A stretch of DNA of 64,000 nt from Candidatus Bathyarchaeota archaeon (GTDB taxonomy: Archaea > Thermoproteota > Bathyarchaeia > 40CM-2-53-6), in NCBI GenBank assembly GCA_963833125.1, contig CAWHWX010000012.1, positions 1 through 64,000 of the forward strand, given 5' to 3'. The position numbers were made by a program, and so were the translations under genes. This document shows positions 34,787 to 57,679 of the stretch, one piece after another (the stretch's first letter is position 1; each line of letters starts with the position of its first letter). The notes beneath the pieces were generated by a model. That model had not been told where the DNA came from, ran no database searches, and was given only the letters and a program-made list of their open reading frames with translations.

Positions 34787-36324
34787 TTGATACGTGATTC
34801 ACCAATGAGTTCAGTCGAAGCAAGTATCTTGGACAGAAACTCGGAATACCTCGGAGTTTCAACTCTTCAATTGATGGAGAATGCGGGACGTTCAGTAGCG
34901 GACGTGATCTCTGCTCGATTTGGGACCGCTAGTTCAGTCATCATTTACTGTGGGGTGGGAAGAAATGGTGGCGACGGAATGGTGGCCGCTAGACATTTGG
35001 CAGCAAGGAAATTCAAGTCACTTTGAGACTAGTAGGAGACGCCAGGACCATCACTGATCCTATCGTCCTTCAGAACTGGTTCGCTTTGAGGTCCATGTCT
35101 TCCTCGGTCAAGATTGAGGAGTGCCGAGATTCTTCATCGCTGTCAGAATCCGATTCTGATGTTTTGGTTGACGCCGTGCTCGGGACAGGCGTTAAGGGTA
35201 GACTTCGCCAACCAATCTTGAGGGCTGTCCAAGTAATCAACGCAAGCCGAGGTTTCAAGTTGGCAGTGGACGTTCCGACCGGAATAGATTCCGACACGGG
35301 GGAAGTATTGGCGAGGCTGTCCATGCCAACGTGACAGTGACGTTTCACTGCGATGAAAAGTGGCCTCAGGAAAGCGGCAAGTTTCTGCGGCGAGATTAAC
35401 GTAGCCGATATAGGTATTCCGCCTGAAGCCGGAATCTTCGCTGGTCCTGGAGATGTTGAAGCAGTTAGGGTCCGAAGACTCCCTGAAGCGCATAAAGGGC
35501 AGTTCGGCAGGCTTCTAGTCATTGGTGGTAGTGAAACATTTAGCGGGGCTCCATCTCTCGTTGCTCTCGGCATACCGCACTGGAACAGACCTCGTTTTCG
35601 TAGCAGCCCCCGAGAAGACAGCCCAAGTAGTCTCGCGCACTCTCACCAAACTTGATTTCCATTAAACTACCGGGCGAGTGCTTAGCCGTCGCCCACATAC
35701 CGTATCGCTTCGCGAGCACATCGATAAGGCTACTGCGATTGTAATGGGCCCTGGATTAGGAAAGAGTACCAAGACGATCTCCGCTGTTCGATCGATTGCT
35801 ACCAATAATACAGGAGTCAAGGAAACCGCTTCTGCTAGACGCCGACGCCTTGAGATGCCTACGGAGTTGTAAAGAGGAAATCATTCGACAGCTCAACCGT
35901 ACTCACTCCTCATGGAGGAGAGTTTCAAGCCATGTCAGGAAAAATGCCATCAAAAGATCTGAAGATCAAGGTCGAGTGAGGTGAAAGAGTTTGCTGCAAA
36001 GAGCGGAGCTGTAACTCTCATGAAGGGACTACGGACGTGATATCAGATGGGGAGCATGTAAGGTTGAATGATACTGGCAACCCGGGAATGACCGTCGGCG
36101 GCACCGGAGACGTTCTTTCGGGCATCGTAGCCGGACTCATGTCGCAAGGGGTTAACACATTTAGCGCCGCAGTCGCAGGAGCATTCATTAACGGTGCAGC
36201 AGGCGACTTGGCAGAAGAACGGTTCGGTTACCACCTAATAGCAACTGATCTTGTAGAATACATACCAAAAGTCATGAACGATCCAATGTGTCATAAGGAG
36301 ATCCACGAAAAACGACTGCGATAA
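34787..36324 (+). CDS. nnr: bifunctional NAD(P)H-hydrate epimerase/dehydratase (multiple frameshifts)
   Basis: Successive fragments: LMENAG/NGGDG, DAVLGTG/AVDVPTG, HKGQFGRLLVIGGS, GPGLG, LDADAL, GGTGDVLSG. Confidence 0.88.
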
Positions 36325-36351
36325 ACCAATGCAGTTCGATCTGCGAAAAAA

Positions 36352-36870
36352 ATGTTACTCGTCCCCACGATTATATGTGCTTCAACTACGCCAAGATGAC
36401 CCTAAGAAATGCACCGCCGCAAAACTAGTGAAGTTCAGACTTGCGAGGCCTCTCTACAGAGTTAGACAAGTACGACCTGAAACAGTCTAACGCTGAACCC
36501 GTTCGCCCAAATGTCCATGTTGAACAAGGATAGGGTTCAAGGCCTGAAACTACGGATTGGTCGCAATCGACTGCTCATGGGAGAGAATGCGAGACGACGT
36601 TCTCGGACCGGCTGCCGGGGCGAAACATCAGGCTTCCAACTTTGCTTGCCTCGAATCCTGTCAACTACGCAAAACCGAATAAGTTGTCATCACATAGAGG
36701 CCCTGGCAGCAAGCTTGTACATAATGGGTTTCCGAGAACAAGCCAGCAAATTACTCTCGCTCTTCAAATGGGGACCACATTTCCTCACACTAAACGCCCA
36801 ACCTCTCGAAGCATACTCCTCCGTAACAGATGAAGAACAACTGGTCAGAGTAGAGTCGGAATATTTCTGA
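36352..36870 (+). CDS. tsr3: 16S rRNA aminocarboxypropyltransferase (DUF367), frameshifted
   Basis: QDDPKKCTAAKL, IDCSW, LASNPVNYAKPNKLS, EALAASLYI, FKWGPHFLTLN. Confidence 0.88.
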
Positions 36871-36899
36871 ATTAGAGCCGAGCGGGTCTGGCTTAGTAT

Positions 36900-37154
36900 T
36901 TGAAGGTAATGAGTAAATACTCCACTATCCCTCGCTGGCTAGATTTCGTTATGGACAGAGCAATGGTCTTATCGGGATTATTCCTAGTTCTCGCGGGACT
37001 TACGGGGATAGTTTACGGTGCTGGAGTAAACCTTCAAGGAATGCTAGCTAGAGGTGCCACCGACTATTCCTTCATCACTGCCTACATAACCGAATGGACA
37101 CTCATCCTGTTTGCGGGACTTACCCTGACTATCGCGGGTATCAAAAGAAAATGA
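36900..37154 (+). CDS. small membrane protein
   Basis: Two TM helices. Confidence 0.55.
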   Translation: MKVMSKYSTIPRWLDFVMDRAMVLSGLFLVLAGLTGIVYGAGVNLQGMLARGATDYSFITAYITEWTLILFAGLTLTIAGIKRK

Positions 37155-37554
37155 ACGCCCATTGCCTCTAATCTGGAAGATTCCGCAAGAAATACGCAGT
37201 TTTCTTAGATAACAATGGTATTGGAATGCATTGTGTAATTCATTTCTATACTTGCAGGTTTTCTGCTACTAACCTCACGGATACACCAGAAAAACCGCAC
37301 ACGCGCGGGTGTGATAACTGACGAAAAACCGGGGTTGATCCTCGTTATCAACCCAAATTCGACGTTAGAATTATGAAGTTCGTGGTCGATGAAGTCACAA
37401 ATCCCGGACTTCTAACGAAGACCACCTACTGCTTGTTGTCAAAATCCGTGTTCGTATGTTAGAATGCAATAGCACAACGATAGCAATAGCCTCCTCGGGC
37501 GGTGTAACCGATTATATTCGGCTTTGCGAGGTCAACCTTCGAGTTTGATGTTTC

Positions 37555-37947
37555 ATGTTGACTTATGATTGGCGGAAGTTTCTTGTGGGGATTGCACTCG
37601 TTACTTTTACAATCACGATGGCAACTAACTTGGCTTATGGGCAAAATCCTCCTCCCACCATAAGCTACTCCCCTGCGACTCCCTTAGCAAATCAGCCCAT
37701 ACAATTCGATTACTCTGGCGGAGGTCCAACTAGTCTCGCTATCTATGCTGGACGTAACTGCCCAGGGATGGAAGGCAGCAGTTCTAGTTCTCCCATTGTA
37801 ACTCTAACTGTCCCAAAGGGAGGAACCGTAACTCTACTGGGAGGGTTGCCTGCGGGGTCGTATAGTGCGGGAACCATTTCGACAGTCTTCAACTACCGAG
37901 GATATGTTGTCTGCAACAATTTCTCAGTGATTAATTCCGGTGGCTGA
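37555..37947 (+). CDS. secreted hypothetical protein
   Basis: Signal peptide (…NLAYG) and a PKD/Ig-like stretch. Confidence 0.55.
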   Translation: MLTYDWRKFLVGIALVTFTITMATNLAYGQNPPPTISYSPATPLANQPIQFDYSGGGPTSLAIYAGRNCPGMEGSSSSSPIVTLTVPKGGTVTLLGGLPAGSYSAGTISTVFNYRGYVVCNNFSVINSGG

Positions 37948-37968
37948 GCTAGTCTTCAAGAACTGAAA

Positions 37969-38022
37969 CGGGTTGGCGTGTTGGCCGTAACCCACCTTCT
38001 GTTTTAGGCGACATTCATCTAA
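37969..38022 (-). repeat. att site: duplicated 3' 54 nt of the RNase P RNA gene
   Basis: CGGGTTGGCGTGTTGGCCGTAACCCACCTTCTGTTTTAGGCGACATTCATCTAA, identical to 47427..47480. Confidence 0.95.
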
Positions 38023-38906
38023 ACAGCCCGAATAATCCTCTCGTAAGCACTACAGCTTATGGAAATCCTCTCAATCCACTTGAGCTTCTTGACGAATTCA
38101 GTAAATTCTGTAGAGTGGACTTGCAACTTGCAAAAGAGACTATTGAGCGTTACAAAGGAATAATGAGATGCTTCTCGAAATCGTTTCCAAATGATCTAAG
38201 GCAAGCGACAGACTGATGATCTTCGAAACTATATGCTTGAAAAGTACTCTCGATTCTCCACCCAACAGCAGAGCTAACATAATTTGTGGTTTTCGTTGCT
38301 TCTACAGAAGCTTTCTTGGTTCAACAATAACCGACAGTTTTCGTTATCCACGAGCACCCTTCACTCCTAAAGAAGCTCCAAGCACTGAAAACATGAGACT
38401 CTTCTATAGTGCTATCACAAAACCAGTACACAAACTCCTATTCCTTTTGCTTGCAACTAGCGGATTACGTGAGATGGAAATTCTATCTTTACGCTACGAA
38501 GACTTGGACATATCCAGAAGAGCAATCATTCCCAAGAATCATGAAGGTTCAACCAAGAAAGTCGTGGCGCTCTTTCTACTCTCCCGAATGCGATCAACTG
38601 CTAAAAGATCATGTAGCATCGAAAGAAACTTGGCAAGGAAATGAGCAACTCTTCAATCTGCTACCTCAAGGCCTTCGTCACGTCTTCGAGAAGGCGAGCA
38701 AACAGTGTGGATTCAAAATTAAGCCTAAAGATTTGCGAGATTGGTTCGCAGACAGGATGGGCAGTCTAGGCCTTCAAGACAGGTATGTGGACGCGTTTTA
38801 AGGTAGAGCCCCTAAGTCGATCCTAGCTAGACATTACTCTGACTTCAGAGTTGACAAGATGAAAATCGTCTACGAATCAGCCAACCTACGCCTATTTGAA
38901 AGATGA
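37969..38906 (+). pseudogene. tyrosine integrase C-terminal part, int(C) (frameshifts, in-frame TAA at 38799-38801)
   Basis: The frame is open from the att site (…DIHLNSP…LLDEFSKFCRVDLQLAKETIERY), then LATSGLREMEIL, KDLRDWF, DAF*GRAPKSILARHY. Confidence 0.85.
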
Positions 38907-38982
38907 ACGCAATTGACCAATCTACGCTGGCTCAAATGGGCCACCGTCGAAGCATTTCCGAGACAAAGGATTACAGGTTCAG

Positions 38983-39279
38983 ATGCGGTCGATAAAGCTG
39001 GGCAATGTTGCGATAGATGGTGAAGTACAAGGAAAAGGCTGGAAGATGGCCTTGGAGCTGAAGACTCTGCGGGACGATATTACACGCGGGATAGGACAAC
39101 TTGCTGAAGCATTAGCCTACGGGTACAATTGTGCGGCGATGGTTACGACCCAACGTAATGCAAAGGACATTGATTCTAAGGTCTTCGACAAGCTGGGCTT
39201 AATTCTACTAGGTGTGAATGCGAAAGGAGAAGTCAAACTATTTTATCCGACTTATGCGGTTGCGAGTTCGATGGAATAG
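38983..39279 (+). CDS. small PD-(D/E)XK nuclease-like protein (N-terminus probably frameshifted from ~38904)
   Basis: IDGEV…ALELKT…GIGQL. Confidence 0.6.
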   Translation: MRSIKLGNVAIDGEVQGKGWKMALELKTLRDDITRGIGQLAEALAYGYNCAAMVTTQRNAKDIDSKVFDKLGLILLGVNAKGEVKLFYPTYAVASSME

Positions 39280-39533
39280 CTGTCATTTACCCTTCGTAAC
39301 TGGTCGTAATAAACAAAATTCGATGAGGTAACGTCAACTTGTCGGTTGCTGGATTTTACATTTTGGGTGTAAAGATTCGGTTGCTGGACTCCTACAACCG
39401 CTTGTCTCTGTAGACTCCTTCATACCTCTAGTTCTCATATACTTCGGTTATCACGGTTGGTGCTCGAAAGAAATCCGGTTTCCTTCAATGATGAAGGGGT
39501 TAGATTTGCTTTGAACTGTTAGCCCAACTGATC

Positions 39534-39932
39534 TTGCCAGCAATCAGTTCGTTGTTGGCAGTATTCATTGGGTTCTGGCTTGAGCACCGATCTGTAAAGC
39601 AAATGAATCAAGAACGTTCAAACACATACCTCAAAGGACTCACCAACGAAATTTCAGAAGCAATTGATCTATTGAAACCCAAGCCTCATCCGTTACAACT
39701 CTTGCCGGTTGATCTCTGGCAATCAGCCGTCAATTCTGGCGATGTTGCGCTTTTCCGTTATGAAGCAAGAGAGGACTTACGAAAAGCCTACTTCGCTATA
39801 ATGAAGTGCAACTATCAATTCACTAGAATAAAGGAATTGGAGAAAAATTCTGGATTGAAGCGGATACATCTGAAAAAGGGCAGCGGATTTCAGCGGCTTG
39901 GCGTGCAGAAACAGACCAAGCTGATTACATGA
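39534..39932 (+). CDS. hypothetical membrane-anchored protein
   Basis: N-terminal TM followed by a helical domain. Confidence 0.5.
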   Translation: MPAISSLLAVFIGFWLEHRSVKQMNQERSNTYLKGLTNEISEAIDLLKPKPHPLQLLPVDLWQSAVNSGDVALFRYEAREDLRKAYFAIMKCNYQFTRIKELEKNSGLKRIHLKKGSGFQRLGVQKQTKLIT

Positions 39933-40045
39933 CCGAAAGCACTCTCTCCTACCTACTGGGTCTTTCTAAGAAATCATGGTTCATTGAGGCAATCAGGTAC
40001 AAGCCCGACTAAGTTCGATTTATCAATATTTGCTATTTTTTCGTC

Positions 40046-40435
40046 CTATGGAGGTCCGAATTTGCTTCCTGCTTCGGAAATCAGCTGATTAAGAACGAAT
40101 ATCGTATTTTCGATAACGATTTCTACTGGCTTCTGCGGGTAACCTTGGAAATGAGCAACCACTAGAGCGCTTGGAACCGGAACTGGATTAACATGTGGGG
40201 GAACTGGTGGGAAAGTCGAGCTAGTGATGACGATTGTTCCTGACATATTAACTGCGTCGTGTAGACTCACCAGATAATGATAATCCACTGATGCTCGATG
40301 TGCTTCGATGTGTCGAACCTTCAAGAGTACTGATGCGTCCTTATTTCGCCCAATTGTTCGGCGCTTCTTTTGAGACCACGCCAAGAAATCTATGGCCTTT
40401 TCATTCTTCGTGGCTTTTGCTTTTGACTCAAACAT
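40046..40435 (-). CDS. hypothetical protein
   Basis: 129-aa ORF, may extend upstream. Confidence 0.4.
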   Translation of the reverse strand: MFESKAKATKNEKAIDFLAWSQKKRRTIGRNKDASVLLKVRHIEAHRASVDYHYLVSLHDAVNMSGTIVITSSTFPPVPPHVNPVPVPSALVVAHFQGYPQKPVEIVIENTIFVLNQLISEAGSKFGPP

Positions 40436-40663
40436 TTCGCTATTTTCAGATAATCATTCGTACTTATGCCGTGGCGAATATTTTTTCGCATAATCGTACA
40501 GAAGATGCTCATTGGAACCGTATAGGGCTGAAACGCAAGCAGATGTGTAGTATCGGAACTCAGCTGATGTGGGAGAAACCGACTGTAGCTTGTTGAAGAA
40601 AGTTTTGGCTTCCTCCAATCTTCTTTCGCGCGCTCATGAAGTAATGCTTTGAGATTGGCTCAT

Positions 40664-41203
40664 TTAGGTATTTGCATCGGCTTTACCTGTAAAAGAATTT
40701 TGAATAGTGGCCTTGACCAGTGCTGGTGGAGTTACAACTTGTGTATGGTCTAGTCTGAGCCTCTGTTCTATCTCTTTTTTCTCGTTTATGAAGTGCCGTT
40801 TATCTAGGCTAACGAAAAATGCAATCTGATTCGCCGTGAGGTATTCGGCTATGTCTCTGTCCGATTCCTTCTGGGGAAAGTTCGGGAAGTTCGGTTTCTG
40901 GTCGAGCCGTGCTTCATCTAATCTTGCTTTTCCCAAGTCAGCAGGGGTTCGAGGCAACTTAGGAAGACGCAGTTCTTCAATGAGGCATAACGCATTTTGA
41001 GCTTTAGTCAGTCTGGACGGATCACTAAGGAGTTTGCGAAGTTCATCCTCGACTTGGAGAGAAGTTACAATTTCGATATTCCCAGTTCGATGAGACTCAA
41101 CTAGCGTCTTAACTGCTAACTCGATTTCTTTCTGGTCAGTTCTTTCAACCGAAGAGTCGTATAGCCCCATCCAAACCGAGGTATCAAAATATGCAGTAAT
41201 CAA
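40664..41203 (-). CDS. PIN domain protein
   Basis: YFDTSVW, QVEDEL, SDRDI, FVSLDKRHF acidic tetrad. Confidence 0.8.
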   Translation of the reverse strand: MITAYFDTSVWMGLYDSSVERTDQKEIELAVKTLVESHRTGNIEIVTSLQVEDELRKLLSDPSRLTKAQNALCLIEELRLPKLPRTPADLGKARLDEARLDQKPNFPNFPQKESDRDIAEYLTANQIAFFVSLDKRHFINEKKEIEQRLRLDHTQVVTPPALVKATIQNSFTGKADANT

Positions 41204-41411
41204 TTGATCGATCCTTCTTGGTGGCGTTTTGGATTAGGGTTAACCACTTATTTTCTCCTTCGACTTTGATTCCTGCCGCCTCCGCGGATGTTTTGCCGTC
41301 TAAGGCCATGTGTGATTTTTACGAAATTGTGGTAAATTCTCATTCCAGCCAAAATTGGCGTGTCAGCTTCTCGACCGTTTGAATACATGCTGGTGCTTGT
41401 ACAAACCTTAG

Positions 41412-41936
41412 TTATCCTGAGCGTTTAACTCGGATATTTCTGGCAAGGTTTTCTCTACAGAATTTCACAGCTCTGTTGTCAAGCAACCGTCCAAAATCAG
41501 CGTAAAACACTTGGTCTATTCTTGAGCCATAACATTCCACCACTCTCACTGTTGGCATAACATGCCGTTTTTTGATTTCGCTCTCTATTGCGTTAGCTCG
41601 ATTACACCCGTCAACAATCAAACGTAAGTTCGCACTTATGTGAAAAGCAGAAAGCAATAACATGTTTCTATCGGATTTAAGTTTAGTCGGTTCTTCCTTC
41701 GCGTGTTTGCGTAACGAATAGTTCACGCTCCCGGCATCATCATAATTTAAGCCGCCCTTATACCAAGGTAAGAAACAATTCTTGCGGAAACGCGCCCAAT
41801 CTCTCTTATTCCGCATGAATCCTTCTCTAACTCTAATGTCATCGCTCCACAGATCGGGTCGCCATAAGACATCTATTTCGTTGCTGTGCTCTAGAAACTG
41901 TGCTGATTCTACCTCAGGCCAACCTGCCCATGACAT
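41412..41936 (-). CDS. hypothetical protein, ParB/Srx-like motif
   Basis: LIVDGCNRA resembles IxDGxHR. Confidence 0.5.
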   Translation of the reverse strand: MSWAGWPEVESAQFLEHSNEIDVLWRPDLWSDDIRVREGFMRNKRDWARFRKNCFLPWYKGGLNYDDAGSVNYSLRKHAKEEPTKLKSDRNMLLLSAFHISANLRLIVDGCNRANAIESEIKKRHVMPTVRVVECYGSRIDQVFYADFGRLLDNRAVKFCRENLARNIRVKRSG

Positions 41937-42232
41937 GTGTTCAGCCAGCTGTTCTCAGGCTGTCCACTGCGCTTCACCTTGTAGCGGCGCACCTCCGCTC
42001 GCGTTAAGGAGTGGATTCATGGAAGATTGAACGGTCATCGCGGATAAAGCCCTACATATATTATGTAGGAAAAGGCTCAATAAAGGACCTTCATAAAGGC
42101 GATAAAGGAACGAAATCAAGAAACGAATTAATTACTATTCCCATAACGGAAGGAATCTAGCCAAGTCCATGCGTGCTACGGGTGCTCGCAGGGTTCATCG
42201 TGACATTTACCGCTGTACGGGTCCCATCTTGC

Positions 42233-42436
42233 TCAAAGTTTCTTATCTGCAATAATCCACTGGTTTTGTCTGCCCACTCTTTTCATTTTCACGAGGTTTT
42301 CCGCCATAAGCTTGTAGAGTTGTAGCTGCGCGGTGTTCCAAGATACTCCCAATTCTTTCGCTACCATCTCAGTGGTTACAGGCCAATCCTGCTTTCGCAG
42401 ATATTCTAGGGTTTTCTTGCTCAGTTCCTTAGCCAT
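42233..42436 (-). CDS. small winged-helix DNA-binding protein
   Basis: VTTEMVAKELGVSWNTAQLQLYKL...RVGRQNQW. Confidence 0.8.
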   Translation of the reverse strand: MAKELSKKTLEYLRKQDWPVTTEMVAKELGVSWNTAQLQLYKLMAENLVKMKRVGRQNQWIIADKKL

Positions 42437-42544
42437 CGAAACTCGAACTATGACACATCATATGATATAGTTTAATTCAGTGCCCCAAAGTAAAAGTATG
42501 ACGAATCATAAGTTTGACCATAGTTACTGCAGAAGACCAGCCTC

Positions 42545-42794
42545 ATGCCAAGTCATCGCGTGCACAGAGCGATTACAACTCGCAGTCTTAGGAAAGCCGC
42601 ATGACAAGGTGCATAAAGCGATTGATTATCCGTATAAGTTTCTAGGCCCAAAACACAGAATTTTGTTTCACGACCCCATCACAGCAGTCATCGTGGCAAG
42701 AACAGCGTCAAAAGAGAAAGGGGCAGGCCTAGCAGCGGTCTTGCATATTGCTACGGACTGGCTCTTTCTCTTTGCAGGAGTGCAAAACTCTTAG
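42545..42794 (+). CDS. small His-rich putative metal-binding protein (frameshift near 42575)
   Basis: MPSHRVHRAI joins LGKPHDKVHKAID…KHRILFHD…LHIATD. Confidence 0.55.
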
Positions 42795-42841
42795 ACAGCT
42801 TGATCGTGCTGCGAAAACGGTTCCATTTCTGATGATTCTAA

Positions 42842-43363
42842 ATGGCTGATGACTTCGTGAATTTCTATGAGCTTCTAGGAGTTACTCCTCAAGCAACAAT
42901 TGACGAAATTAAGACTCAGCGTTACAGGATGCTAATTGCCTATCATCCTGATCATAACAAGAGTTCGTTCGCAAACGAGATAACGAAACGCATCAACGCA
43001 GGCTGGGAAATCCTGTCAGATCCTATTAGACGACAGGAATATGATGAAACGCTGAAATGCGAACGCCTATCAGACAAAAGCATAGCCCCTCAACATTCCA
43101 CCGCGAAGCCTCGACATCGAGCATTACAGAGAAGGGTCAGGAAAGAAACACAACAGAGCAGTGAACGATCCACACGCTGTTCTCCTGTTAATAACAAAAG
43201 AAAGAGCGAGCGGGAGGCGATCGATTGGATGGAACGTTTGAAGAAAGGCATGACAGAAGGAGCGAAAATGGCCTTTGTAGGTTTGAAAATAGCCTTTATC
43301 GTTCTGATTGTTTTCATAGCATTGCTGAATTTCTTGGGCGGCGGAAGAAGGAGATCGTACTAG
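42842..43363 (+). CDS. DnaJ (J-domain) protein with C-terminal TM
   Basis: NFYELLGV, YHPD, INAGWEILSDPIRRQEYD. Confidence 0.88.
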   Translation: MADDFVNFYELLGVTPQATIDEIKTQRYRMLIAYHPDHNKSSFANEITKRINAGWEILSDPIRRQEYDETLKCERLSDKSIAPQHSTAKPRHRALQRRVRKETQQSSERSTRCSPVNNKRKSEREAIDWMERLKKGMTEGAKMAFVGLKIAFIVLIVFIALLNFLGGGRRRSY

Positions 43364-43455
43364 AAGACGTACAATCAAATGCCATTTCCGATCATCAGCC
43401 CAATGCCAAATACTTTAGAAAATATGATCCAAATGAACATCGGGAGGTAACTAAT

Positions 43456-44733
43456 TTGAGAGCGCGCCTTCTCTTCTTGATGTTAATTCTTTCGTTGGGT
43501 GCTCTTTACTTCGTCGTTCCTGTTTATGCTCAGATTGTAACCGTTTCTAATTTGCACTATTCCTCTACTTCCGTCCTCGGAAAGCAAGCAACAGTCAGCT
43601 TCACGGTTAACTATGGGGGTGCAAGTGCAGGTGACTATCTTATCATATCAGTCTGGGATGTTAATGCCAATAACTATGCTTCAGGTTCCACAATTAACTC
43701 CTACCCTGATTCCTGCCCTCAGATAACCGGCACTTACAGCTGGGCTGCAGGTTGCGCTTATGCACTATCAAATCTGCAAGCGGCGCCAGATTACACGACA
43801 GAGACTGTAAGCTTCGCTTTAGCGATGAATTCCGTTGGCACTTATCAATTCAGCCCATTAGCGGCTATAGAAGATACGAGTTTTAATGTTCTGGCTTCTT
43901 CCCCTACCACTCAAAACGAGTTCTCAATTTCCGTATTAGACAAGTTCACTTTGACTGTGAGTCTTCCTAGCCAAGTTCCCTTGACTCTCGACGGTGTTCA
44001 GCAGGGTGCTGGATCAACTAACTTGCAATTGTCACCTGGCGCGCATGAGATGTCGGTTCCGGATATAGTTCAACTCGATTCTACCTCAAGGCTGAAGTTC
44101 AATGGCTGGTCTGATGGCTCAAATCAGACTATGAGAACCTTTGATTTGGAAAGCGATACGGAAATAGTAGCAACGTATGTCACTCAATACTTCGTGACCT
44201 CAACTACTGATTCGACACTGCAATCAGGGTGGTACGACCAAGGAACCGTTCTGCAATTCACGGTAGACAACAGGCCGTTAGTTAACAAATATCGCCTGTT
44301 CGTAGGCGGATTCGACGGATGGTACAACATGGGTCAGTTGAGAGCAAACTCGCCTACTACTTCGCTCACAATTGACGGCCCTATAAATCTAAGTGACAGA
44401 TGGAATTATTTACCGTATTTTCCTCCCGTGTTAATTGTTGTAATTGTCGCTGCAATTCTTCTCCTTGCAAGGCGAGGAACTATTCCTGTCCCCCGCTTAC
44501 CTGAGCTGAAAATGCTAGGTCGTAAGCGTTCGAGGAAACACGTTAGAAGCAGTAAACCAAAGATTGAAACAATCACTCCTGAGCCGGAAAGACAAGTCGC
44601 TTCGACTGCTAAAATCAGGAAAGCAGAATCCTCTCAACAAACTAAGATTGGAATGTACTGTAAGGAGTGTGGGGCCAAGATTCATAGAGATAGTATTTTC
44701 TGCGAGGAATGTGGAAGCACTGTCAAAGAATAA
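43456..44733 (+). CDS. cell-surface protein with TM and C-terminal zinc ribbon
   Basis: Signal peptide after GGAGGT RBS, FNGWSDG repeats, YCKECG...FCEECG. Confidence 0.75.
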   Translation: MRARLLFLMLILSLGALYFVVPVYAQIVTVSNLHYSSTSVLGKQATVSFTVNYGGASAGDYLIISVWDVNANNYASGSTINSYPDSCPQITGTYSWAAGCAYALSNLQAAPDYTTETVSFALAMNSVGTYQFSPLAAIEDTSFNVLASSPTTQNEFSISVLDKFTLTVSLPSQVPLTLDGVQQGAGSTNLQLSPGAHEMSVPDIVQLDSTSRLKFNGWSDGSNQTMRTFDLESDTEIVATYVTQYFVTSTTDSTLQSGWYDQGTVLQFTVDNRPLVNKYRLFVGGFDGWYNMGQLRANSPTTSLTIDGPINLSDRWNYLPYFPPVLIVVIVAAILLLARRGTIPVPRLPELKMLGRKRSRKHVRSSKPKIETITPEPERQVASTAKIRKAESSQQTKIGMYCKECGAKIHRDSIFCEECGSTVKE

Positions 44734-45589
44734 GCGGACCAAATTCTGCCGACGTTGCCGAACAGAAATACCAAGAACGAGCAAGTTCTGCAAGATTTGC
44801 GGAGCACAACAGGTTCAAGTAGAGCATTCCACCGCGGAAGAAAAAAAGGAGCCGCAAGTACATCCATCCCGGCTTAGCGCATCTACGCCGAGATTTGGCA
44901 GAAGAACGCAATTGGGCTTGGTAATGATCCTTGTCGCGATCATGCTTGTTTGGTTTTCCATGTCAGGAGTGTGGTATACCGAAAAATTCAGTGGTACATA
45001 CTCGCAGATCAGCGGCATAAACGGGACAGATGACTATCTTAACCAGTATTGCGACCAAATCCCCACGGGGTCGTTTGCATACCCCGGCCAAAATTGTAAT
45101 CCATATGGTCAAGAGTGCCTTCCTTGGCCACCTTATTCTTGTGTAGGCATAGCAGTTCCGTTCAGTAACGCAAACACTCTCATGTTTAACGGACTCATTC
45201 TTGCAATTCTCACTTTCATCTTCCTTGTATTAGGTACACTCTGGCCGACAATCCTGACAATCAAAATCAATATGCTTGCTATGGCAGTTTGCGGAATTCT
45301 AGGAAGCGCACTTGTCTTAATTGCACCGCTCTACTTGTCCGCAGCTCTTCGTTCCAGTGGATTTCAGTGGAGTGGATTAGAGAATACGGGGTGGTTAACA
45401 GCCTTGATTGCCTGTATCTGCTTTGTTACCGCGACAATTACATCTTTCCAGGGACTGAAGAAGGTCGTTCCGCTTGGGAATATCTCATTCGATCCCAAAG
45501 GGATCTTATGTATTGTTCTGTATATCGTGATTGTTCTTCCATTACTACTGCTGCTATTGTTCCAGTTATTCTTACTTATTTTCTATTAG
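44711..45589 (+). CDS. zinc-ribbon multi-pass membrane protein
   Basis: FCRRC...FCKICG followed by several TMs. Confidence 0.7.
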   Translation: MEALSKNKRTKFCRRCRTEIPRTSKFCKICGAQQVQVEHSTAEEKKEPQVHPSRLSASTPRFGRRTQLGLVMILVAIMLVWFSMSGVWYTEKFSGTYSQISGINGTDDYLNQYCDQIPTGSFAYPGQNCNPYGQECLPWPPYSCVGIAVPFSNANTLMFNGLILAILTFIFLVLGTLWPTILTIKINMLAMAVCGILGSALVLIAPLYLSAALRSSGFQWSGLENTGWLTALIACICFVTATITSFQGLKKVVPLGNISFDPKGILCIVLYIVIVLPLLLLLLFQLFLLIFY

Positions 45590-46119
45590 CCTTCTGCCCA
45601 ACTCAACCTTAACGCAGTTAGCCGAATCAACTTATGAGGCGCAATGTCGCCATTATGACATCTTTGACGTTTACGAAATTGCCCGAGGATACAACTCTAA
45701 ACGGGCGCATACATGAAAATCCCCTTGGTAACTAGGAAGCACAAGGTGATTATGAAAGAGATAAAACTCGTCCTCAATACTAATCCTCTTTCTTGGTGCC
45801 ATTCAGCCTCAAGAATAGGCTCTAGGCGATCTCGGAGCACAAGATGACATTTTACGATTGATTTACCGAACCTACGACAGATTGCGAGGATTGCAGAGTT
45901 CGGAGTTCAGCGCGAAATTGCCCATTGCCCTCATTTCCTAATTACGAGTGAACATTGAGTTCTAGTGTACGGCCACCAGATAATTACTAAGATGGAGGCC
46001 TATCGGAATAGAGATAGAAGAAAAAAGGGAAAGGAAGGTAATACCATTGTCTATAATGGATATATCATGTCTGTATAGGTATAGAACCAATCTCTGTAGG
46101 CGTTTACGGCTTCACTGAA

Positions 46120-46641
46120 TTAGGGAAGCTCCGCCCACAAGGCCTGCTGTACTCTGTGTTCTGAATCTCTGTCTCTTGTCAGTACCTGCGGTGGAATCAT
46201 AACCGCGTTGATATGTTCTTGAATCAACAACGGTTGTACATGAGTCGGAATAGGTGCTGTAATCAACAGCAATTTGCATGGTGCAGTCTGATATGATTCG
46301 TATCTTGTTAGAATGTACAGCTTAGTCCTGGTTGTATTTGGCGGCTGCCCCCAGTTCTTTGCCTCTATTACAACGACTATTTGAGAATCAATACTAACTA
46401 TGAAATCAGGTGTATGTGACTCAGGATCATGCGTGTTTGCTCTTAGCCAGAGTAAGTCAACGATTGGCCCTTCTCTTGTAAAGTACCGAGTTGCATCTCT
46501 AACCGCTGTTGCCTTTTCAGGTTTCGCATAATCTGTCACAGAATATTTGGTTGCAAAGTAATATTGCAATAATGGCCAAAGCATTTTTTCTAATATTTCA
46601 CCTTTCTCTTGAACATCTAACTGCTTCATACTCTTTCTCAC
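46120..46641 (-). CDS. PD-(D/E)XK restriction-endonuclease-like protein
   Basis: TPDFIV…VVIEAKNW. Confidence 0.7.
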   Translation of the reverse strand: MRKSMKQLDVQEKGEILEKMLWPLLQYYFATKYSVTDYAKPEKATAVRDATRYFTREGPIVDLLWLRANTHDPESHTPDFIVSIDSQIVVVIEAKNWGQPPNTTRTKLYILTRYESYQTAPCKLLLITAPIPTHVQPLLIQEHINAVMIPPQVLTRDRDSEHRVQQALWAELP

Positions 46642-46841
46642 CCCCTTGTTATTGTAGCCGCGACAAGGAGTTACGATAATTCTTGCGGTCAGAGCTCAAA
46701 CAAATGTGCGCTGCCGCTTGCACAACAATGTAATCGGGACGGCTGCTACCCTAGTATAGGGTGGAAGTTGCATATAAATCTATCGCTATTATCTAGTTTA
46801 AGTATCTAACCTTAAAATCTAGTCTGCACTACACGGTTGTT

Positions 46842-47113
46842 ATGTCGAAACCGAACATTGAGCACCTCATACTCTACGAGCCATTACATAGGTTGCCGAA
46901 AGATGGCATTAGACGCAGAACAACAAAATATGACAAAGTATTGGCAGACCGAAAAAAGTGCCCAGAAAACTCGTCTTCAACGATGAAGAAAAAGCAACTA
47001 ATGTCTACGTAGCTCTAAGAGTGCGAATCAGAAGGGACGGTGAAACTCTCCAAGTTAGGAAAAGAGGCTTAGAAGTCTACGTATTTGCGCCACTGCGGTA
47101 TGAAGGCGGCTAG
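46842..47113 (+). CDS. small basic hypothetical protein (frameshifted)
   Basis: MSKPNIEHL…TKYDKVL joins …VRKRGLEVYV. Confidence 0.4.
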
Positions 47114-47209
47114 ATTATCAGCAGCTAGGATAAGTCACGGAATGAAACCGGCCAAGATAGGTCACAGTTTCAGGGCAAAGGGCATCTCTACAAGGCGGAG
47201 ATATGAGTA

Positions 47210-47480
47210 ATGCGAAAGAAGCTAACCCTTCGTGTTGACAGCGATCTTGTTCAGCAAGCGAAAGCTCTAGGAATTAACCTAAGTCGGTTAACTGAGAAGG
47301 CAATTGTGGCTTCCATCGGAAACCGTACGTACATGCACGTACAGAACGACATTAGCAGGATGGTTCACATAGAAATGCAACCAACTCAAAATGAGTCGAA
47401 GTCAGTTAATGAGTTAGATAATGAGTCGGGTTGGCGTGTTGGCCGTAACCCACCTTCTGTTTTAGGCGACATTCATCTAA
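47210..47480 (+). CDS. integrase N-terminal part, int(N), with RHH (CcdA-like) DNA-binding domain
   Basis: MRKKLTLRVDSDLVQQAKALGINLSRLTEKAI reads into the att repeat in the same frame as int(C). Confidence 0.75.
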
Positions 47481-47735
47481 TCGGGATACCCGCACCTCCG
47501 GCGGGAGGTCATTGGCGCCTATTATCCCTTTCACGACGTGGGCGGGCATTTCACCCTTACCTCCAGCCTCATCAACGCAAGCGCATCATCTTCCGCGGCT
47601 AGCGGAGGTTTCTTTCTGCGCCCTGACCCGACCTCTCAGTCGGCATCTCACGATGCCACGCTTCCGCCACGTGGATGGAGTTTCCTCAAGCCCATCATAC
47701 ACCGGGCCCGGAGTCGCTCACCAACTCGCCAACCC
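47428..47735 (-). ncRNA. rnpB: RNase P RNA
   Basis: On the minus strand: P1 GGGTTGGCG/CGCCAACCC, CR-I GAGGAAACTCC, CR-V AACAGAAGGTGGGTTA. ~308 nt, with TTTAT ~25 nt upstream. Confidence 0.92.
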
Positions 47736-47845
47736 ACCCAACTATCGACCCAACGCCATAAACAAGGATTACGGAATTCTGCATGAAATCGAACGTCGTG
47801 GAAAGAGGAAAAAGAAAGAAAAAAAGAAACAGGGAGAGTGGGGCT

Positions 47846-48397
47846 TTACTTCTTCGATCGCATCGCGAGAATGTAACCGATGCCACCGAGTGTAAATCCG
47901 ATTAAGGCTAGAAGGATAAGGTAGGCTATTGGTTGCGAGTAGTATTGGAGTACGTGTACGTGCACTTGGCCTGTTGTCCATCCTTGTCCGCCAGCGCTGA
48001 CTGGTTGCATGCCTGCGCCCCCAAGGTAGCCTCCTATCATAGTCAGGATAGCAGCGCCAGCTACACCGATGTTCCCGAGGACTAGGTGTGCCCACGCGAG
48101 CCCCTTCACCGCTCCAGTGTATGTCTTGCCGAGTACTGTTTCAATGTAGAAATAGAATAGTGAGGTGACAGCCATGGCGACAACGCCGACAATAAGGTAT
48201 GTCAGATACCCCATGATGAACCATTCTCCAGCCTCACCGCCAGCGATCACGTGTCCCACGCCTACTGGATATAGGCCCATCTGGTCGCCGAAAGCACCAA
48301 GGAATGTAACGAAGGCTGCTATAGCACCTTGGAACATTGCTGCGTAAAGGAAGTACCCCGCCATTTTGCTTGTTTTGCCTTTGAGTTCCATTTTCAT
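47846..48397 (-). CDS. four-TM membrane protein
   Basis: Hydrophobic helices including LAWAHLVLGNIG. Confidence 0.7.
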   Translation of the reverse strand: MKMELKGKTSKMAGYFLYAAMFQGAIAAFVTFLGAFGDQMGLYPVGVGHVIAGGEAGEWFIMGYLTYLIVGVVAMAVTSLFYFYIETVLGKTYTGAVKGLAWAHLVLGNIGVAGAAILTMIGGYLGGAGMQPVSAGGQGWTTGQVHVHVLQYYSQPIAYLILLALIGFTLGGIGYILAMRSKK

Positions 48398-48697
48398 TCG
48401 CTAAAATTAGGCAAATACAATGAATTCGATTTATGTTTCTTGTATATGTTTTCCATAGATTATAGTGTATGAAGAAATCCTTCTGACCCACATGAACAGT
48501 CTTGCGAAGCAGGTCGAACTCCACGTCTACTGCACGCGTACTGACCCAAACGTGAACCTTCAATCTGAAGGAGAGCAATGACCAAGAGGCAACAGAATCT
48601 AGGGGTGGGTGGTGCAGGAAGTCCGGCGAGGATTCGCTTCGTTGCGCTTTCCTTAAGTTCTCACTTAATAGTGCGCTTGCCCAAAAAGGGTTTAGCC

Positions 48698-49318
48698 ATG
48701 GGTTTCATGCCGATACGTTACAAGGGGCAGCGAAGCGGTTTTTCTTCGCCGACAACATGGCTGATCATCATCAATGTGATAGTTTTCCTAGTAATGCTGG
48801 TCAGCGGCGATTTTGGCGATTGCAACTCGTTGACCTGTCAGATACTTGCCCAAGAGAACGATCTCGTGATGTCCGGGGCATATTGGCAGTTGTTCACTTC
48901 AATGTTTGTACACTTCGGCCCCGTGCACCTGCTATTCAACATGTTTGGATTATACTTCTTTGGTCGGATTAATGAGTCGACGTTCTCACCTCCGAAATAT
49001 CTGGCAATTTATCTTGGATCAGGTTTACTCGGCAGCATCATGACTCTTGTCTTGTTACCGGCTTCAACGCTCTCGGGAGGGGCTTCGGGCGCGATTTTTG
49101 GTCTAGTGGGCTCATACGTGGCGATCGAACGTAGTACCCAGCGCATGGGCTTCGCTCTGGTTTACGCTGTAGTCATATTCGTCGAAAGCAGTTTCTTGCC
49201 CGGTGTGAACATATTCGCGCATTTGTTCGGGTTGGTCGGAGGGTTTGCTCTTGGCTTACTCTTCATGTCTATGCGAAGGCCGATCGGCTATTCCGAAGGC
49301 TCGACGTATACCCTTTGA
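48698..49318 (+). CDS. rhomboid intramembrane serine protease
   Basis: WQLFTSMFVH, HLLFNM, GASG, AHLFG. Confidence 0.92.
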   Translation: MGFMPIRYKGQRSGFSSPTTWLIIINVIVFLVMLVSGDFGDCNSLTCQILAQENDLVMSGAYWQLFTSMFVHFGPVHLLFNMFGLYFFGRINESTFSPPKYLAIYLGSGLLGSIMTLVLLPASTLSGGASGAIFGLVGSYVAIERSTQRMGFALVYAVVIFVESSFLPGVNIFAHLFGLVGGFALGLLFMSMRRPIGYSEGSTYTL

Positions 49319-49333
49319 TTTTGATGCTTGATC

Positions 49334-50990
49334 TCAGCGTAGCATCGGCATTTTGATTCCTTTCTCTCTTGCAACCTTAATCGCAGAATCGTATCCAGCG
49401 TCTGCATGTCTTACGACTCCTAAGCCTGGGTCCGTAGTGAGAACGTGTTCCGCACGTTTTTCGATTTCTTTGCTTCCGTCTAGGACTAGGCACATGCCTG
49501 CGTGGATGCTATACCCTATGCCTACTCCTCCGCCGTGGTGGACTGATACCCATGTCGCACCGGCAACCGCATTCAACAGTGCGTTTAGGATCGGCCAGTC
49601 TGCGATGGCGTCCGAACCATCTTTCATGTTCTCAGTCTCCCGTCTCGGTGAAGCCACGCTTCCAGTGTCCAGATGATCTCTTCCAACCCATATTGGGCCA
49701 GAGAGTTCGCCCGAGGCCACCATGTCGTTCACTATCTTACCGAACCTAGCCCTCTCCCCATAACCCAACCAGCAAACCCTAGCGGGTAGACCCTGAAACT
49801 TCACCTGGTCGTGCGCCTTTCCGATCCATCGTACAAGTTCCTTGTTGTAACCAAACTCCTTGACGATCATCTGATCAATCTTGAATATGTCGTCGGGTTC
49901 GCCTACGAGTGATGTCCAACGGAACGGTCCTTTGCCTTCGCAGAACATGGGTCGGATGTATTCTGGAACGAAACCTGAGAACGCGAAAGCTTCCTTCAGG
50001 CCCGTATCGAATGCTTGTTGGCGAATGTTATTTCCATATTCGAAGGTGATGGCGCCTGCGCTCCATCATTTGCACCATCGCCTTCACGTGAAGGACGATG
50101 CTTTGCTTCGCCTTACGAATGTATTCGTCAGGGTTGGATTCGCGAAGCTTGTCCGCTTCTTCCTTGCTTAGCCCCGAAGGGTAATATCGCAATGGCTCAT
50201 GGGCCGACGTCTGATCCGTAACAATATCGGGTACGACGCCAAGCTCAACTAGTTTGGGATAGACGTCCGCAGCGTTACCGAACAAACCAACGCTGAGACT
50301 TCGCTTCGACTTCCGTGCTTCTTCAACCATGCGCACGGCTTCATCGAGGTCAGCGGTCCACTGCATGAGGTAGCCGTGCTTTAGCCGACGTTCAATGGCG
50401 GCCTTGCTCACCTCCACCACCAATGCGACGCCGTCATTCATAGTTACAGCGAGAGGTTGAGCTCCCCCCATCTCACCCAACCCAGCAGTCAGAACCAGTC
50501 GACCTTTGAGTGATCCATCGAAATGCTTCTTGGATACGGAGGCCAAGGTCTCGTACGTACCTTGAAGGATTCCCTGCGTTCCGATAAACGCCCAGGAACC
50601 CGCCGTCATCTGACCATACATTATCAGACCTTTCTGCTCTAATTCGTAAAAGTAATCCCATGTAGCCCATTTCGGGACCAGCATTGCATTAGAAATTAGT
50701 ACGCGCGGTGCCCACTCGTAGGTTTCGAAAACAGCAACAGGCTTCCCGCTTTGTATGAGAAGAGTTTCGTTCGGATTTAGATCCAGCAGAGTCTTGGTGA
50801 TTTGTTCGAAGCATTCCCAGTTGCGAGCGGCTTTTCCGGTGCCACCATAGATGATTAGGTTATCAGGGTCCTTGGCTACTTCGGGATCCAAGACGCTGTG
50901 AAGCATCCTGTAAGGTCCTTCAATCTGCCAGTTCTTGCAGTGTAGCTTCTTACCCGCAACAGCCGCAGCTGAAGGTTTGAATTTTTGCAA
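49334..50990 (-). CDS. hutU: urocanate hydratase (frameshift near 50060)
   Basis: [23 protein letters not shown], then [15 protein letters not shown]. Confidence 0.95.
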
Positions 50991-52719: not shown

Positions 52720-54269
<1,550 letters not shown>

Positions 54270-54445
54270 TAGTAAACTTCGAACGGACTGGAATGCAAAT
54301 GAGTTATGACTGTAAGCCTAACCGTCCGATAATGCGGCCGCTGAGGAAGCTCAGTGGCTAAGGGTGTAGTGGTCATCCGCTAGAATGATCATGATGAACA
54401 CCGTGCATAGGCCTCTAACGTTAGACGAGTGTGGGTTCCATAGTA

Positions 54446-57497
<3,052 letters not shown>

Positions 57498-57679
57498 GAA
57501 AATGGAATCCACCGTCTGATAACGCAATCCGGAGGCCTATGCACGGTGCGAATCAAACACCAAACTATATTCAATTTGATTCGCTCTCTTCAGGTAGCGG
57601 AGCCTCTGAAGAGCTGAACGAGTAGCTCACGCAATTCTATGCGTGACGTTGTGAAGCAGGTCGTTGGGAGCGCGTTTGT

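Follow-up and report, generated by a model that had tools for sequence, protein, structure and literature searches.

Suicidal integrases are, to our knowledge, an oddity found only in archaea. In the fuselloviruses SSV1 and SSV2, whose integrases are of type I (PF16795), attP lies inside the int ORF, so that the provirus carries int(N) at one end and int(C) at the other, and the translation of att is part of a protein with the signature R...KxxR...Y; the locus described here is alike in these respects. In the SSV integrases, the N-terminal portion can be separated from the rest and is what makes the enzyme multimerise (PMC8371274, consulted sections). In the Thermococcales elements pTN3, pT26-2 and TPV1, too, the integrase is suicidal, the att translation varies and integrated copies have become trapped. 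However, elements of the pTN3 type use the 5' half of a tRNA gene as attB (same sections of PMC8371274), whereas the att site of the present locus is the 3' end of an RNA gene read antisense. The thaumarchaeal, mesophilic NitEve-E3 is likewise cryptic, lacks viral hallmarks and has an SSV1-like integrase whose gene is cut when the element integrates; the part of its text consulted does not mention RHH at the N-terminus or rnpB as a target (PMC6563490). The role of the N-terminal piece and the persistence of trapped elements are listed as open questions in the consulted sections of the field review (PMC8371274).

The window, a stretch of 64,000 nucleotides from a Candidatus Bathyarchaeota archaeon, contains a 9.5-kb mobile element inserted in the 3'-terminal part of rnpB, the gene for the RNase P RNA (please see Table 1 for coordinates). 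We put at about 0.87 the probability that this is a cryptic element that integrated at the rnpB 3' end by means of a type I SSV-type integrase headed by an RHH domain, the integrase gene being cut in two. The enzyme itself appears to be an SSV-type "suicidal" tyrosine integrase with RHH as its Int(N). While SSV1 and SSV2 target tRNA genes, the target here is the RNase P RNA gene, and the host lineage is Bathyarchaeia, which is absent from the text of the review (PMC8371274). Neither rnpB as an integration target nor an RHH-integrase fusion was found in the main texts and listings of the literature searched.

Table 1. Features of the integrated element and its target in the window. Column Basis denotes the evidence used for each feature.
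Feature	Coordinates	Strand	Basis
Host gene marking the empty site	36511..36870	+	homologues in relatives without the element
attL, left 59-nt repeat copy; duplicated rnpB 3'-end fragment	37964..38022	.	repeat search
int(C), C-terminal part of SSV-type tyrosine integrase; pseudogene as assembled	37965..38906	+	translation, alignment
Element body, 9.4 kb	38023..47421	.	ORFs, Pfam, PHROGs, NCBIfam
Small PD-(D/E)xK-fold gene directly 3' of int, frameshifted in the window	38913..39279	+	AF2, fold search
int(N) ORF, 130 aa	47210..47602	+	translation, Pfam
RHH domain of int(N), residues 2-38	47213-47323	+	Pfam
Variable linker of int(N)	ends 47421	+	translation, dN/dS
att-encoded peptide of int(N)	47422-47480	+	translation
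int(N) tail, accidental, antisense to rnpB	stop at 47600-47602	+	translation
attR, right repeat copy; 3' end of intact rnpB	47422..47480	.	repeat search, Rfam
rnpB, complete; integration target; att corresponds to approximately model positions 242-288	47434..47729	-	Rfam

A repeat search over 36000-49500 returned a direct repeat of 59 nt with 97% identity; the sole other repeat family in this range is a 23-nt pair at 83%. The two mismatches lie at 37967-8 and 47425-6, and the identical core of 54 nt (37969-38022 = 47427-47480) begins exactly where the initial annotation had placed the repeat. The RNase P RNA gene is archaeal and full-length (178 bits, model positions 1-288 of 288, Rfam), and the right repeat copy consists of the last 47 nt of this RNA and 12 nt past its 3' end. 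An rnpB gene was found at the corresponding place in 13/13 related loci, and two int(C) junctions in relatives (L002 and L003), equivalent to attL, are without an RNase P gene. The element is absent from two congeners, which thus represent empty sites; in these, the distance between the rnpB 3' end and the end of the homologue of the host gene listed in Table 1 is approximately 40 nt (G003) and approximately 270 nt (G007). Within this one genus, rnpB has been used as a target repeatedly.

The initial annotation had proposed that the integrase gene is split in SSV1 style by an internal att, with the RHH ORF at 47210 as the N-terminal part. This ORF, which begins with an ATG overlapping the stop codon of the preceding ORF (TAATG), reads MRKKLTLRVDSDLVQQAKALGINLSRL...SGWRVGRNPPSVLGDIHL, exactly as translated there, and then runs on as IGIPAP... 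antisense to rnpB. The RHH domain matches CcdA PF07362 (E 1.1e-7, 32.5 bits vs the cut-off of 22.4, Pfam), with the match spanning profile positions 1-37 of 71 only, which is the RHH part, and the G-x-N-x-S turn is kept; the NCBIfam CcdA model gives 19.5 bits vs a cut-off of 100. A complex prediction for two copies of the RHH domain scored 0.34 vs a mark of 0.42, a value that weighs neither way on dimerisation. With dN/dS values of 0.07-0.6, the RHH part is under purifying selection, unlike the linker, where dN/dS is 0.6-1.2. In-frame ATGs are located at residues 42, 51 and 56, from which an RHH-less isoform could be made. A full-length match of an RHH ORF running into rnpB was obtained in 5 of 61 related genomes, with the frame open through att in four of the five and one TAG in G002. 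Among database proteins (n=11), RHH reads into rnpB in all seven of those examined.

At the left copy, the frame is open from 37953 (...GWRVGRNPPSVLGDIHLNSPNNP...LLDEFSKFCRVDLQLAKETIERYKG...) and continues, as had been stated, without a stop through att into the integrase core until a TGA at 38214-38216. From the end of att up to the conserved core-binding domain, this frame has no ATG, GTG or TTG; the earliest in-frame start after att is the GTG at 38115, within that domain. This continuity of the frame and the missing start bear out the proposed split. The int(C) part is laid out as att peptide, SAM-like core-binding domain and catalytic domain. That the integrase is broken was also correctly recognised: compared to the intact copy in a related genome (G004, 94% nt identity), it has three +1 frameshifts, caused by 1-nt insertions close to positions 38213, 38250 and 38558; in addition, the CAA codon at 38799-38801 has become a TAA stop. 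Read through, it shows 63% identity over residues 2-312 with 7 stops, and the motifs ATSGLR, GSTKK, KDLR, GR and ARHY are still readable. The R...KxxR...Y signature is thereby present, though interrupted by frameshifts and the stop; R169, R258 and Y291 (the ATSGLR, KDLR and ARHY columns of the window) are invariant in an alignment of 17 sequences, and QxxR replaces KxxR in many relatives. The intact G004 orthologue matches PF16795 (Phage_integr_3, 37.8 bits with a cut-off of 27), PF00589 and PF13495, and PF16795 is precomputed in 25/28 homologues; the best match for the broken fragments of the window is PF00589 with 19.8 bits, below the cut-off. As assembled, Int(C) is dead. Since it is a pseudogene in this form, excision would not rebuild a working enzyme in the window.

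The relatives decide how the split is to be read. The same att peptide is found at both ends in all six split pairs examined, namely the window and five others, which are located at rnpB (G004, with the same split layout and Int(C) intact), tRNA-Thr (G059), tRNA-Val (G061) and two other att sites (L062 and L094). Rather than starting on their own after att and never being fused to RHH, integrases of this family have RHH, att peptide and integrase as a single ORF in 8/80 metagenome loci and 4/80 genome loci; among the best 150 representatives of protein clusters, 11 have it. These fused ORFs support the RHH ORF as the N-terminal part. We checked 10 of the 11 representatives, 7 of which have Pfam CcdA (PF07362) and integrase domains. 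PF07362 is also found in the G059 Int(N), and all four unsplit ORFs that were scanned combine it with Phage_int_SAM and Phage_integrase or Phage_integr_3. The search for intact RHH-integrase homologues, which had been recommended, was therefore successful for tRNA-targeting relatives but not for the rnpB type itself. No unsplit rnpB-type gene was found among proteins >159 aa sharing words with Int(N), where the 11 matches are integrated halves or a chance N-terminal fusion, nor among 28 Int(C) homologues of 187-332 aa. Since the hits of the rnpB subfamily are all integrated halves, we infer its fusion from relatives at 35-45% identity.

A complete tRNA is absent in 15/15 unsplit or related loci, and terminal overlap indicating a circular contig was not found in any of 24 whole-contig loci. 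Some of the unsplit ORFs on large chromosomal contigs are serial-integration junctions and not free attP, and these consequently show an open frame rather than expression. One such case is G061, where an element has integrated directly beside the Int(N) stub of an earlier one, in the order [older Int(N)]-att-[Int(C) ... Int(N)]-att-tRNA-Val. Its left junction has an unbroken RHH-att-Int frame of 380 codons with GTG at the expected ATG position. As this genome has the whole ORF while the element is integrated, the claim that the integrase is re-formed only on excision was too strong. The arrangement suggests that serial integration beside an old stub rebuilds a whole gene and so offers an escape route from the trap. 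According to record titles, the integrase family is present in Bathyarchaeia, Nitrososphaeria, Methanomethylicia, Hadesarchaea, Methanoperedens, Halobacteriales MAGs and others, and the unsplit RHH fusions are from Bathyarchaeota MAGs, one Halobacteriales MAG and one unclassified archaeon. No relatives of Int(C) were found in IMG/VR viral contigs, by single protein or by profile. The RHH-integrase architecture turns out, as far as these records indicate, to be widespread in uncultured archaea.

The AF2 model of an unsplit relative is a confident two-domain recombinase over residues 77-349, with a low-confidence linker over att; in this monomer, the N-terminal helices 13-21 and 29-42 have low confidence, the strand is not modelled, and the pLDDT of RHH is 35-59. 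Its best fold match is XerA (E 1e-11), and the modelled core superposes on lambda Int and Tn1549 Int. The lambda and Tn916-type integrases are similar to the unsplit RHH enzyme in having a small extra DNA-binding domain before the core-binding and catalytic domains. Their arm-binding domain is a three-stranded sheet fold, and their genes, unlike that of the window, are not split by integration. For integrases of Sulfolobus viruses and plasmids, the alignment with the unsplit relative begins no earlier than its residue 77, so no similarity to RHH is seen. The "SSV1-type integrase" of TPV1 aligns over residues 4-344 (25% identity, E 1e-4) and has an RHH-like KTRIHITIDEEVVGAMNEMGINKS in frame just upstream of its annotated ATG, although this N-terminal likeness is weak (6.4 bits to our own RHH profile, no Pfam RHH match, no canonical upstream start). 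Free-standing RHH regulators, such as SSV1 F55 and the N-domains of CopG and CcdA, belong to the same Pfam fold family, have the G-x-N-x-S turn and are of the size of the Int(N) piece after integration; in contrast to them, the RHH of the window is the first domain of a recombinase, has no CcdB partner and leaves the C-terminal half of CcdA unmatched.

Taken together, in the free element the integrase gene would span attP and encode, in this order, RHH, a linker whose att translation is antisense to the RNA gene, and then a SAM-like core-binding domain and a catalytic domain with R...KxxR...Y; the linker is poorly conserved and probably disordered. Recombination within the 54-nt core would have restored rnpB and cut the integrase gene in two, with Int(C) going to the left end and the Int(N) RHH ORF to the right end, antisense into rnpB. 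By analogy to RHH proteins and to the N-termini of IntSSV1 and IntSSV2, the RHH domain may dimerise the enzyme and/or add a second DNA contact.

A possibility that we regard as doubtful, yet the best surviving of the alternatives, is that the Int(N) RHH left after integration is more than debris, acting as a repressor or immunity factor or as a stub that restores the integrase of the next element. The lower dN/dS of the RHH part is consistent with such a role, but this selection may stem wholly from the episomal phase, in which RHH is part of the enzyme. Retention of the ORF can be seen in G013 (100% complete by marker genes), which has an intact RHH ORF at rnpB, with a single att copy and no Int(C) match in that assembly; however, at the lesion density of the neighbouring genes (approximately 5 per 1.3 kb) an RHH ORF of 210 nt escapes damage by chance in approximately 45% of cases, and the G002 copy has a stop. 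Reuse of stubs is suggested by the rebuilt G061 junction and by a remnant of the Int(N) linker in the attL flank of G004. In S. solfataricus, int(N) of pXQ1 and XQ2 is transcribed (PMC8371274, consulted sections), and SSV1 F55 is an RHH regulator of lysogeny (AGV1 preprint, consulted part). The same stub could also serve as an RHH repressor. We would tentatively entertain, without favouring it, the fuller version in which detached RHH stubs are functional, outlast the decay of their element, and give the next integrant a front half, promoter and start, resulting in a whole gene and re-excision. If true, the "suicide" would be reversible at the level of the locus, which bears on how suicidal integrases persist.

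It is improbable that the Int(C) frameshifts are sequencing or assembly errors in a still competent element. An A-run (AAA vs AA) holds one of the three insertions, and the only sequencing run that we found covers none of the four lesions; on the other hand, the TAA is a substitution rather than an indel, the adjoining small gene is also frameshifted, and the flanking host ORFs align full-length and without frame breaks to their homologues in G013 and G002. Since Int(C) and the adjoining gene carry lesions and the surrounding host genes do not, the 9.5-kb copy appears to be trapped and decaying.

Still less probable, and in our judgement hardly credible, is an independent RHH gene (a CopG/CcdA-type regulator, an antitoxin or an excisionase-like gene) that merely abuts att, with the integrase starting in or after att. 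The Pfam and NCBIfam names are those of the CcdA antitoxin, the region before att, of approximately 70 residues and with ATGs between RHH and att, has the size of a free RHH protein, and free-standing RHH genes are common in archaeal mobile elements (consulted parts of PMC6563490 and the AGV1 preprint). However, the ORF of the window has no stop before att, four of the five full-length-match genomes are likewise open (G002 having its one TAG), the stretch from att to the conserved core-binding domain is free of start codons, and RHH and integrase share one frame in the 8 + 4 loci and 11 representatives given above. The antitoxin version (type II toxin-antitoxin) was rejected because the RHH half alone is matched and no CcdB-like ORF was seen among the neighbours scanned. 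A chance open frame is unlikely since the frame is kept in 6/6 split pairs.

With the reading of an RHH-headed, split integrase, a large and taxonomically broad clade acquires a recognisable and easily assayed Int(N) domain. Since Int(N) is recognisable as RHH, it is now directly testable whether the left-over piece dimerises, binds DNA and regulates. With the RNase P RNA gene as a target in place of a tRNA gene, the rule that elements land at the 3' ends of stable structured RNAs is extended.

The cargo mostly lacks an annotated function and includes PIN-like, wHTH, DnaJ-domain and Zn-ribbon membrane proteins; PHROGs and NCBIfam gave nothing informative on it except the wHTH and DnaJ matches, and no virion or replication hallmark genes were found in the element body. 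Apart from int and its adjacent gene, the element of the window and that of G004 have no genes in common. That adjacent gene, of the PD-(D/E)xK fold, is kept at the same position in 6 elements, and its AF2 model (pLDDT 91) has as best PDB folds XisH / fdxN-element excision-controlling factor (2okf and 2inb, E approximately 1e-4, TM approximately 0.6). A soil DNA run containing 9% of the sampled words gave 11 short contigs over 36500-49000, with no joints or circular junctions, a result that bears on neither expression nor excision; one of these contigs, from a relative, diverges from the window exactly at 47427.

The 59-nt direct repeat at 37964-38022 and 47422-47480 (attL and attR), with two mismatches, was the sole long one returned by a repeat search of 36000-49500, and the only other repeat family was a 23-nt pair at 83%. 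The identical core spans 54 nt (37969-38022 = 47427-47480). The right copy comprises the final 47 nt of the RNase P RNA gene (rnpB), which is complete in the window, and 12 nt past its 3' end; the left copy is a stray duplicate of the rnpB 3' end. Gene order on the left flank is kept in the related genome G002 as far as the host gene at 36511-36870, and in two relatives with an empty site the homologue of this gene stops approximately 40 nt (G003) or 270 nt (G007) from the rnpB 3' end. We scanned 15 related loci; rnpB was at the matching place in 13 of 13, the remaining two being int(C) junctions without rnpB. The repeat, its position at the end of rnpB and the empty sites in relatives together establish that the 9.5 kb between the repeats is an insertion in the rnpB 3' end, with the RNA gene restored. 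A soil-run contig matches rnpB with a few differences and leaves the window exactly at 47427, the first base of the identical core, which is what a relative with another left flank would show. About 5 kb downstream of rnpB there is an archaeal rRNA operon at 52720-57498 (16S at 52720-54269, 23S at 54445-57498).

The two ends of the insertion carry two parts of one reading frame. The ORF starting at 47210 matches the Pfam CcdA profile (E 1.1e-7, 32.5 bits, cut-off 22.4) over positions 1-37 of 71, the RHH portion alone, has no stop ahead of att, translates att as GWRVGRNPPSVLGDIHL and then runs antisense to rnpB until 47602. At the left repeat this frame is again open (from 37953) and yields the identical att peptide followed by NSPNNP...LLDEFSKFCRVDLQLAKETIERYKG, a stretch that corresponds to a tyrosine-recombinase core-binding domain of the SAM-like type. 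Past att, no ATG, GTG or TTG occurs in this frame before the GTG at 38115, already inside this conserved domain, so that the integrase, as far as its sequence indicates, is without a start of its own downstream of att. Repeat search, Rfam, Pfam and translation thereby confirm the repeat, the RHH ORF and the continuity of the att frame as the initial annotation had described them. The coordinates of these and other features are collected in the table.

Features of the integration module in the window and in related loci
Feature	Sequence	Position	Strand	Remark
Int(N) RHH ORF	window	47210-47602	+	starts MRKKLTLRVDSDLVQQAKALGINLSRL
Archaeal RNase P RNA (rnpB), complete	window	47434-47729	-	Rfam, 178 bits, model 1-288 of 288
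Small gene downstream of int, frameshifted	window	38913-39279	+	MTNLRWLKWA frame from 38913, rest in another frame
D...ExK gene	L002	815-1165	-	
D...ExK gene	L033	695-1039		
D...ExK gene	L157	2319-2648		
D...ExK gene	L065	991-1311		
D...ExK gene	L077	3383-3685		
G061 left junction, RHH-att-Int frame	L203	7253-8392		unbroken, 380 codons, GTG at expected start
G061 right-end Int(N)	L203	15851-16189		runs into tRNA-Val
tRNA-Val	L203	16091-16168	complement	
Orphan RHH Int(N) ORF beside rnpB	L119 (G013:C19)	6006-6335		intact
Orphan RHH Int(N) ORF beside rnpB	L120 (G002:C50)	11927-12214		one stop, in ~2.7-kb remnant

The same layout recurs in other elements. The 15.5-kb element of the related genome G004 carries Int(C) at one end; at its opposite end an RHH ORF reads into rnpB. 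In G059 the RHH ORF runs antisense into tRNA-Thr and has VEPRGGFEPPTYSLR in common with the frame of an Int(C) located on a different contig, and G061 has the split pair at tRNA-Val. Two metagenome loci, L062 and L094, have Int(C) on the left and the RHH ORF on the right, both halves containing ARGVGFEPTRPLLTTGLAGL and GAGVAKPGKAPDSR, respectively. With the window included, att is read in one frame at both ends in all six split pairs, as expected of an integrase split in the SSV1 manner by an att site inside its gene. The elements in L062 (3439 nt) and L094 (4295 nt) are minimal, at approximately 2.5-2.8 kb: besides the two integrase halves, Int(C) and the RHH Int(N), each encodes a small membrane protein and a functionally unassigned protein of 240-264 aa.

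Unsplit genes were also found. Eight of the best 80 metagenome loci (of 553 relatives) have RHH and integrase in a single open frame with M at the RHH (L042, L053, L054, L082, L084, L105, L108 and L112); a further locus, L092, has a frameshift within the RHH, and in L051 and L088 the contig start cuts the RHH or the linker. The 80 genome loci taken from 164 relatives include four complete fusions (L132, L134, L183 and L187) and two partial ones (L151 and L199). A complete tRNA gene was present in none of 15 unsplit or related loci, and the att sites there are therefore attP-like and partial. In the fusion from a Halobacteriales MAG (L183, 5-1156) the linker is without a tRNA-like peptide; the att site of this fusion may be located elsewhere or belong to a different type. 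We then compared a profile of the eight fusions to 1.84 billion cluster representatives, which gave 15,566 matches at E <= 0.001. Among the best 150 of these, 11 have an alignment that starts at profile position 8 or earlier and extends through the integrase, and 7 of the 10 scanned contain Pfam CcdA and integrase domains. All four unsplit ORFs scanned contain CcdA, SAM-like and Phage_integrase or Phage_integr_3 domains.

From the recurrent layout, the unsplit genes and the constraint pattern in relatives, we conclude that the RHH ORF is the true N-terminus of the integrase. The initial annotation had made this claim, and the eight metagenome and four genome fusions, as well as the lack of a start after att in the window, uphold it; what would have spoken against it is homologues that have their own start after att and are never fused to RHH, and unsplit RHH-integrase ORFs exist. 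The search for intact homologues that it had proposed succeeded in relatives and returned no unsplit gene of the rnpB type, all seven Int(N)-like database proteins inspected being integrated halves that run into antisense rnpB (one of them with a chance N-terminal extension). RHH is absent from all Int(C) homologues found (187-332 aa). For the rnpB subfamily we infer the fusion because relatives with 35-45% identity have it and because a start codon is missing. In Thermococcus prieurii virus 1 (L122, JQ010983.1), the frame ahead of the ATG annotated for the 'SSV1-type integrase' reads KTRIHITIDEEVVGAMNEMGINKS (801-846), an RHH-like stretch followed by a tRNA-type att peptide, without a canonical start codon upstream. 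The alignment of this integrase with an unsplit relative begins at residue 4, and the similarity of the RHH-like stretch is weak (6.4 bits to the RHH profile, no Pfam match).

The intact G004 integrase matches PF16795, the archaeal phage integrase family (37.8 bits vs 27), as well as PF00589 and PF13495, and PF16795 is precomputed in 25 of the 28 Int(C) homologues from a large protein collection. Many Int(C) homologues and open frames of related genomes start with RGGFEPPT, RGVGFEPT or WWAGPDLNRRPSA, which are translated tRNA 3' halves; such a start is the mark of integrases with att inside their own gene. In a review of archaeal tyrosine recombinases (PMC8371274), the SSV-type class is defined by the signature R...KxxR...Y, which the window integrase has in common with it (KDLR for KxxR), and the translation of att is a variable part of the protein.

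The constraint on the coding sequence is uneven. Among the four rnpB-type copies compared, dN/dS is 0.07-0.6 in RHH residues 1-40 and 0.6-1.2 in the linker, a pattern that fits a domain followed by a linker. The AlphaFold2 model of the unsplit L112 protein, built on a 31-row alignment, has a mean pLDDT of 81.5. Residues 77-349 form a confidently modelled recombinase of two domains, the core of which superposes best on archaeal XerA (E 1e-11). The pLDDT is below 50 at residues 43-76, att peptide included, and the N-terminus consists of two short low-confidence helices with no strand, as might be expected of an RHH modelled as a monomer.

Compared with the intact G004 copy (94% nucleotide identity), the window int(C) carries one extra nucleotide near each of 38213, 38250 and 38558 and has TAA in place of CAA at 38799-38801, with the motifs ATSGLR, GSTKK, KDLR, GR and ARHY still legible; it is dead as assembled. 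The host ORFs flanking the element match G013 and G002 homologues from end to end with no frame breaks, so the damage seems confined to the element. It is most simply explained by a trapped copy in decay, the fate expected of suicidal integrases without a helper according to PMC8371274. The only genes common to the window and G004 elements are int, its neighbour and the RHH ORF, and none of the cargo is shared. No virion or replication hallmark gene was found in the cargo of the window element, which is therefore a cryptic integrated element. In six elements the gene immediately following the integrase encodes a D...ExK-motif protein of about 110 aa. Its AF2 model (pLDDT 91) has as best PDB folds XisH and the fdxN-element excision-controlling factor (2okf, 2inb; E ~1e-4, TM ~0.6). 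The protein may serve the integration module as an accessory or directionality factor. Two long ORFs of the window element with Zn-ribbon and membrane segments (43225-44733 and 44564-45589) overlap by 170 nt in different frames and may be one more frameshifted gene.

Recombination took place within the 54-nt core, that is, the rnpB 3' end read antisense by the int gene. The tRNA-targeting relatives have the same geometry, their att being antisense of the tRNA 3' half. The RHH fold is an intertwined dimer that binds DNA. In IntSSV1 and IntSSV2, Int(N) drives the assembly of dimers or tetramers, and Int(C) by itself is a poor recombinase (PMC8371274). By analogy, we infer that RHH takes the multimerising role of Int(N) in the clade of the window; it would pair integrase protomers and perhaps add a second DNA contact, and the att-encoded stretch would be a tolerant linker. 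The promoter-proximal RHH ORF is left in place by integration and points into rnpB, where it may be expressed and might act as a repressor, as the initial annotation proposed. PMC8371274 documents suicidal SSV-type integrases as well as tandem integration and trapped copies, all of them well known. Neither an RHH N-terminus nor an RNase P target is mentioned in this review, in Badel et al. 2020 or in the Bathyarchaeia virus paper, and the thaumarchaeal survey (PMC6563490) has RHH as a separate gene only and no mention of RNase P, although supplements of all four could hold entries. Full-text literature searches likewise found no RHH Int(N) or RNase P RNA target. The RHH as Int(N), the rnpB target and the broad spread in uncultured archaea would be new features.

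The initial annotation also held that the integrase is re-formed only on excision. The split stands, and the restriction to excision does not, since a junction in G061 rebuilds the whole frame while integrated. There (L203, G061:C3:1486000-1505000), an 8.6-kb element lies between two att copies, and its left end adjoins a second, older Int(N), about 80% identical to the right-end Int(N) by eye, which accounts for the unbroken RHH-att-Int frame at the left junction. On the G004 attL flank (L002, ~2110-2220, minus strand), the frame upstream of attL reads ...QPEIQSLQNNSNSANSPRNETGW, with a linker-like remnant QPEIQS...; the similarity of this stretch to the Int(N) linker of G022 (VQPEIQSTQNG...) suggests that an earlier integration at this rnpB site left a remnant behind. 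The G013 and G002 assemblies, with their orphan Int(N) ORFs, contain a single att copy and no Int(C). Judged from these sequences, serial integration evidently occurs at such att sites, and the G061 junction together with the stubs and remnants in G004, G013 and G002 indicates that a whole RHH-att-Int gene can re-form without excision. Later arrivals could be served by the old Int(N) stubs. The G061 locus also contains part of the C-terminus of a third integrase, at 10871-11077 of L203.
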